A program made the position numbers and the translations under genes. Below are positions 63,181-63,452 of a DNA stretch of 64,000 nt, one piece after another. Where the stretch lies: the NCBI GenBank assembly GCA_951406725.2, contig OX597823.1, positions 72,850,001-72,914,000 on the forward strand, written 5' to 3'. Position 1 is the first letter of the stretch. Every line of letters starts with the position of its first letter. The notes beneath the pieces are model-generated. The model did no database searches. It was not told the DNA's origin and worked only from the letters and a program-made list of their open reading frames with translations. This stretch comes from Octopus vulgaris (taxonomy: Eukaryota).

Positions 63181-63452
63181 GTTGTGTCTGGGGAGAGTCA
63201 GTTTCTTTTTGCACTTTATAATTTAACAGACTCACCGGTAAAATTTCCACTGATCTCTTATTTTTATGTTTCTAAAATTGTCGTTGCGTCTTGCAACCTT
63301 TTCAATAGTTTTCGAGAGTCAAGACTACTGAAGAGGTTGCAAGACGCAACGAAAATTTTAGGAAAATAAAAATATGAAATTTGTGGAAATTTTACCTGTG
63401 AGTGTGTAAAATGATAAGGCATAAAAAGAAAATGGCTCTCCCCAGACACAAC
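63181..63452. repeat. Inverted repeat with about 130-bp arms (63181-63309 / 63324-63452), each carrying a hammerhead motif
   Basis: GTTGTGTCTGGGGAGAG..CTCTCCCCAGACACAAC ends; arms read as reverse complements. Confidence 0.9.
63325..63361 (+). ncRNA. Minimal hammerhead; inverted partner at 63272-63308 has a U3-A8 core
   Basis: CTA-CTGAAGA-G-GTTGC-AAGAC-GCAAC-GAA-AATT-T-TAG. Confidence 0.65.

Follow-up and report, generated by a model that had tools for sequence, protein, structure and literature searches.

An inverted pair of minimal hammerhead repeats with U3-A8 and C3-G8 cores in Octopus vulgaris: two templates or separate decay?

Near the right end of the 64,000-nt stretch of Octopus vulgaris DNA analysed here (the window), two inverted copies of a repeat each carry a hammerhead-like box. 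Direct comparison of the letters confirmed that the two 16-nt boxes differ only at positions 3 and 8: the right box (plus strand, 63325-63340) reads CTA CTGAAGA GGTTGC, with C3 at 63328 and G8 at 63333, and the left box (minus strand, 63308-63293) reads CTA TTGAAAA GGTTGC, with U3 at 63305 and A8 at 63300. As the first-pass annotation held, C3-G8 is a pair of the catalytic core, and its replacement by U3-A8 is natural and active (PMC3088659, PMC4209133); in an anole element, C3G or G8C abolishes cleavage and the double change rescues it partly (Frangieh et al., 2024, PMC11167929). The annotation went further and took the exchange as internal evidence that the motif was selected as a ribozyme and that the arms may derive from two variant templates. 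The question raised by this locus is whether the exchange records two lineages of a catalytic core or two ordinary changes in a decaying copy.

The two arms, separated by 8 nt, are the only copies of the repeat in the 64-kb window. Their 20 mismatches comprise 11 transitions and 9 transversions. The features of the pair are as follows.

63181-63312, minus strand: left arm, a 5'-truncated pLTR-like copy without a tail, matching the right arm at 112 of 132 sites
63313-63320, no strand: head-to-head junction of 8 nt, in which 63315-63320 are upstream sequence of the right copy
63321-63452, plus strand: right arm, a 5'-truncated pLTR-like copy with 10 departures from the family majority letters
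63272-63308, minus strand: left minimal type I hammerhead, with a U3-A8 core and A14 changed to C at 63280
63325-63361, plus strand: right minimal type I hammerhead (descriptor match), with C3 at 63328 and G8 at 63333
63325-63327 and 63359-63361, plus strand: right helix I, 3 bp (descriptor match)
63335, plus strand: extra unpaired G of the right hammerhead, between positions 9 and 10.1
63336-63340 and 63346-63350, plus strand: right helix II, 5 bp, closed by G10.1-C11.1 (G63336-C63350)
63351-63354, plus strand: right GAAA (descriptor match)
63354-63357, plus strand: palindromic AATT of the right hammerhead (15.2-16.2), in place of helix III; UUU triplet
After 63358, plus strand: cut of the right hammerhead predicted from the motif

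Both arms fit a minimal type I hammerhead of the kind found in Penelope-like elements (PLEs), in agreement with the annotation, the left one with a single GAAA change; the GACA reported for the left copy was indeed present, at 63280. The right arm has a complete YUGANRA box (CUGAAGA) and GAAA together with a Watson-Crick 3-8 pair. A minimal-hammerhead descriptor, composed after the motif had been seen, matched the 64 kb at 63328(+) and 52810(-), and also at 63305(-) when one GAAA change was allowed; it matched none of 40 windows simulated with an order-3 Markov model. Rfam gave no hammerhead, at the gathering threshold or below it, among 36 matches in 62400-64000 (E up to 10), and none among the 150 of 243 matches listed for the window.

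Cervera and De la Pena (2014; PMC4209133) described minimal hammerheads (min-HHRs) in the pLTRs of metazoan PLEs, with an extra nucleotide, a palindrome and opposite-strand pairs about 100-700 bp apart. The octopus motif resembles these in its type I core without a real helix III, the extra nucleotide before 10.1, the G10.1-C11.1 pair, the palindromic 15.2-16.2, a short helix I and the prevalence of truncated solo copies, as well as in the replacement of C3-G8 by U3-A8 and the occurrence of opposite-strand pairs. Its pattern of palindrome, NUH triplet and short helix I is that of the Crassostrea row in their alignment. It differs in that U3-A8 is the majority core here, in its extra G, a place at which the consensus has H, and in the spacing of the paired cores, which here lie about 20 nt apart. 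In the same source a U3-A8 variant (Cercyon) has about 1,300 matches in Schistosoma mansoni, and the alignment pairs S. mansoni (4), U3-A8, with S. japonicum, C3-G8, at nearly the same helix II and contains a U3-G8 core in Saccoglossus. Covariation of C3-G8 with U3-A8 and opposite-strand pairs in PLE hammerheads were thus already published in 2014. Natural U3-A8 hammerheads had been reported earlier (Perreault et al., 2011, PMC3088659); the core-pair covariation is alike, and those are monomeric three-helix ribozymes whereas helix III is missing here. The part of the PMC4209133 supplementary alignment examined contains no cephalopod row, an open-access literature search found no published account of this family's hammerhead, and three motifs from the window had no match in a supplementary file of an octopus repeat paper (PMC13282606).

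At this locus the hammerhead is probably inert, because the left core lacks A14, a read-through RNA would collapse into a hairpin of about -159 kcal/mol and each strand carries one sense core. Loss of A14 likely inactivates the left hammerhead, judging from its letters. The whole 272-nt pair is predicted to fold into a hairpin at -158.6 kcal/mol. For the right-arm monomer the hammerhead fold (-6.7 kcal/mol) is not the lowest, as a competing fold reaches -8.3 kcal/mol; nor was the hammerhead dimer the lowest-energy result when two right-arm copies were cofolded. A cis dimer of the two arms was ruled out: their cores lie on opposite strands, so one transcript carries a single sense core. Compensation at the level of the hairpin was rejected as well, since both changes break the pairing of the arms, giving an A-C mismatch and a U-G wobble.

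The exchange can be read only against the family to which the arms belong. Contigs from 4 of 24 listed DNA runs were aligned to 63160-63475 at 80% likeness: X1 and X2 (organism A), X6 (organism C) and X13 (organism E), under three organism labels. About 80% of X1, which may be the window's own sample, was read. Between 3,873 and 12,557 contigs per run were placed on the repeat in all four runs, where contig depth differs from copy number and measures it poorly, and contigs drop rare variants. The arm repeat is a very abundant, high-copy family. In the letter-share table, of which 40 of 63 rows were listed, position 3 of the right arm is T in 77, 86, 81 and 96% of depth (X1, X2, X6 and X13, respectively) and position 8 is A in 97, 93, 91 and 87%. 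On the left arm, per-kind totals place C3 below 5% in X6 and X13 and G8 below 5% in X2. The GAAA letter at 63280 makes up 99% of aligned depth in all four runs. As read from these shares, the family core is mostly U3-A8; the left arm therefore has the common core, with a private loss of A14. C3 and G8 are two of the 10 departures of the right arm.

Several variants accompany the majority form. In X13 the share of G8 exceeds that of C3 by a factor of 5.8, which hints at a class with a U3-G8 wobble, and 18% of depth has T in place of G10.1 at 63336. Loose ends at 63366 in all four runs point to a sister family with the same hammerhead and a different sequence after 63366. Loose ends at 63323 in X6 and X13 come from longer copies with a common upstream sequence. 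Both observations are leads towards the parent element. Outside these runs, an exact 22-mer of the motif was absent from metagenome contigs. A relaxed pattern matched 17 loci, 9 of them from metagenome contigs and 8 from prokaryote genomes, with no match in viral contigs; these loci, none with the family's downstream sequence, were taken as chance and left out of the counts. The recorded holders of the sequence in the run search included no RNA run.

Set against the family majority, the left arm departs at 9 of the 20 arm-difference sites and the right arm at 10, with one site counted for both, and 2 of the 20 are polymorphic in the family. Each arm thus lies about 7% from the majority, and such equal divergence is what would be expected of two copies decaying separately. 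With both arms about equally far from a U3-A8 majority, the exchange at this locus demonstrates neither selection nor the use of two templates.

If C3 and G8 descended together from a variant lineage, they should vary together. The C3:G8 ratio of residual shares, taken per site and without linkage, was 3.41 in X1, 1.08 in X2, 1.11 in X6 and 0.17 in X13, the residuals also containing unlisted letters. The ratios of X1 and X13 require many single changes, and those of X2 and X6 are compatible with a linked class; independent variation of the two positions, which the annotation had named as refuting its reading, is borne out in part, being suggested by two runs and not by the other two. Contigs with both letters would align to the right arm, so that the smaller residual caps the linked C3-G8 class at no more than 0.3-0.9% of the depth of both arms, or 0.5-1.9% of that of one arm. 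Residuals at positions 3 and 8 were within the range of other private sites.

We also calculated how often decay would yield such an exchange. The chance that the 10 departures of one arm restore the 3-8 pair by transitions is 0.06-0.19% per arm; for the same double change in either arm it is 0.1-0.4%, and for a pair-restoring double change at any of about nine modelled pairs 1-3%. Such odds are low for one locus and not low for a family this abundant. As to the annotation's caveat that two transitions could be chance, C3 and G8 have minor shares like those of other private changes, and the odds per arm are small. A rare lineage with a share of a few tenths of a percent would compare in order of magnitude with chance decay, and this single locus cannot show selection.

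The arm ends bear on how the pair arose, and the following features flank it.

63167-63179, plus strand: left candidate target-site duplication, 13 bp, matching the right copy at 11 of 13 positions
63453-63513, plus strand: one-sided tail-like extension, 61 nt, 75% A+C, its length assuming the target-site duplication call
63514-63526, plus strand: right candidate target-site duplication, matching the left copy at 11 of 13 positions

Family depth drops about 20-fold left of 63182. Past 63452 it persists, on the right side only, up to 63475, the end of the aligned stretch; many copies stop near 63459 and others continue. In run X13, where 30 contigs form a loose end at 63474, 24 of 30 letters match 63475-63504 by hand count. 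The 11/13 match of the candidate target-site duplication was equalled by 10 of 1,500 random stretches of the window and by 92 of 2,000 shuffles, and it reaches 16/19 if 5 nt of the left arm are added; these letters are no more than suggestive of a target-site duplication. At the centre, depth dips about 15-fold in the bin 63314-63324. Loose ends occur at 63312, and in other copies 182 joints were counted (15 listed) that connect an arm end with widely differing positions in the opposite arm; some of these joints may stem from repeats where short sides were joined at low likeness. Joints at so many positions mean that the junction varies between copies, which counts against a MITE.

Inverted 5'-truncated copies, one-sided tails and target-site duplications are known from PLEs (Craig et al., 2021, PMC8557442; Arkhipova et al., 2013, PMC3846280). 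Similarly to the Penelope elements of Adineta vaga in these two papers, the octopus pair is a head-to-head inverted copy with an optional tail on one end, and the pLTR may likewise run into the first codons. Unlike them, it has no ORF between the arms and no palindrome at the junction, its tail is 61 nt, and its candidate target-site duplication is 13 bp with 2 mismatches, against the 8-10 bp reported there. In Poseidon PAc of Anolis (PMC11167929), both strands are cut and extended by the protein; the ORF has its start at helix II, and reverse transcription is initiated 111-118 nt inside it. PAc copies, like those here, end in an AC-rich stretch, and the shared end of the two octopus arms lies 117 nt past the helix II start, a closeness to the anole geometry that is a single match and may be coincidence. 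PAc is intact and assayed, and its ORF starts at helix II, whereas the one ATG frame close by in the octopus begins 96 nt downstream of the helix II start and has no homologue.

On the strength of the motif and of this layout, an inverted 5'-truncated copy with variable junctions and a tail on one end, the arm repeat is likely the end (pLTR) of a PLE. No autonomous parent with RT and GIY-YIG could be identified; the arms enclose no ORF, and no RT/GIY-YIG ORF could be tied to the family. Two coding features were considered.

63432-63560, plus strand: 42-codon ATG frame that begins near the arm end, a possible start of the parent ORF
45399-46650, minus strand: broken PLE ORF relic (RT end and GIY-YIG), from protein comparison

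The 42-codon frame had no homologue among longer proteins, and none of 18 PLE proteins matched it convincingly. The relic is 39-52% identical to three of the 18 homologues checked (RT and GIY-YIG proteins of 660-760 aa); it has no clear DNA match to the arm repeat and, by the descriptor, no intact hammerhead downstream.

We therefore favour, with roughly even confidence, a reading in which the locus consists of decayed head-to-head copies of a U3-A8 repeat, likely 5'-truncated pLTR ends of a PLE brought in by one insertion, with C3 and G8 likely two later transitions. By analogy with the PLE literature, the element's RT/endonuclease would nick AT-rich DNA, and reverse transcription would begin at two closely spaced sites within an AC-rich stretch that follows the hammerhead, which would leave one arm with a tail and the other without; the two short cDNAs would then unite head to head. 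After insertion the right arm would have gained C3 and G8 as ordinary transitions. In the parent element, cleavage by the motif would proceed through a dimer or be assisted by protein. Supporting this reading are the published min-HHR traits of the motif (extra nucleotide, G10.1-C11.1, palindrome and short helix I), the PLE-typical inverted truncation and one-sided tail, the arm end at the anole distance, the balanced departures of the arms, and an unrelated head-to-head hammerhead pair in the window with similar arm identity (128/150). The U3/A8 majority, the uneven C3:G8 ratios and the low ceiling on a linked class agree with it too. Against it stand the small chance of a pair-restoring double change, which the linked-class ceiling exceeds several times, the near-equal C3 and G8 residuals in two of four runs, and the fact that related schistosome PLE families display this very core switch. 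No RT/GIY-YIG ORF tied to the family, an extra G where the published nucleotide is H, a tail of 61 nt where 30-40 nt is usual, and depth as a poor measure that loses rare variants weigh on the same side.

The main competing reading, somewhat less probable in our judgement but a serious contender, is that the locus joins two templates, the right arm stemming from a rare lineage of the family with C3-G8 and the left arm from the common lineage with U3-A8, either because one insertion used two RNAs or by subsequent conversion. In that case the covariation would be genuine, a product of selection for cleavage in the parent elements. The low chance odds per arm and the matched residuals of X2 and X6 speak for it, as does the excess of G8 without C3 in X13, a possible U3-G8 wobble step of which Saccoglossus offers an example. 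So do the near-identical helix II of S. mansoni (4) and S. japonicum, which differ in this core pair, and the anole PLE protein, a predicted dimer that cleaves and extends both strands. The same reading has to accommodate a linked class of at most 0.3-1.9% of depth and the lopsided ratios of X1 and X13; the right arm shows no excess of departures (10 versus 9), and residuals at positions 3 and 8 are no different from those at other private sites. That a rare, active C3-G8 lineage exists beside the dominant U3-A8 one and that the locus is one insertion with arms from two RNAs, taken together, we regard as unlikely. PMC3846280 favours self-priming for head-to-head pairs and leaves the question open, and self-priming versus two-template priming is an open question in PLE biology. 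If arms often proved to come from different lineages, self-priming and two-template models of PLE insertion could be told apart; under two RNAs, mismatched-lineage pairs would be a genome-wide record of two-template priming at both strands, as opposed to self-priming on a single template. A family with U3-A8, U3-G8 and C3-G8 would, if real, trace the switching of a catalytic pair. The present data extend the known PLE hammerheads by one more abundant family of repeats, in which, as a small twist, U3-A8 is the majority core.

That the pair is a MITE-like, non-autonomous DNA element of the foldback type, whose long inverted arms would resemble hammerheads only incidentally, is very improbable. 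Its long inverted repeat with an 8-nt centre, the missing Rfam hammerhead match and the missing ORF link would suit it, but the centre is not shared, as the depth dip and the many different joints indicate, the ends are asymmetric, with family sequence beyond one arm only, and the motif agrees with the published PLE consensus and had no descriptor match in the simulations. We rejected a MITE or foldback DNA transposon accordingly: neither a fixed shared centre nor symmetric termini were found. A non-LTR retrozyme was also rejected; it needs head-to-tail tandem type I units (10.64898/2026.07.22.740005), and the two copies here are inverted. That host selection kept the right hammerhead or the hairpin as a locus-specific functional RNA, with C3-G8 an adaptive upgrade at this site, is scarcely credible: the right core has every canonical letter and arm differences are fewer inside the hammerhead span (3/37) than outside it (17/95), but this falls short of significance (Fisher p 0.19), all 3 differences in the span sit on core positions, the arms are equally decayed, single min-HHRs were uncleaved in vitro and dimers cleaved weakly (PMC4209133), and the Rfam miRNA matches score far below gathering and reflect the hairpin and microsatellites.

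The window contains other elements. A second head-to-head pair, from another repeat family, occupies 52716-52865 (-) and 53055-53205 (+), with 128 of 150 arm sites identical and a spacer of about 190 nt with simple repeats. It carries minimal hammerheads with CUGAUGA cores at 52810(-) and 53111(+), both C3-G8, the plus copy having A for G10.1. A further minimal hammerhead-like motif at 11063 (-), about 11030-11067, has a CCGACGA first box (U4C) and 4-bp helices I and II, and a more decayed look-alike of it lies near 53687-53715 (-). A near-complete non-LTR retrotransposon with four long frames spans 39466-42884 (-) (Pfam RVT_1, E 2.7e-18), and fragments resembling it were seen near 16200-18700, 20700-22500 and 26850-27770. 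A mariner-like transposase fragment is present at 47023-47493 (+) (Pfam Transposase_1, E 7.2e-09). Finally, two direct repeats of 119 nt, 62655-62773 and 62839-62957, are 79% identical and presumably resemble SINE copies.
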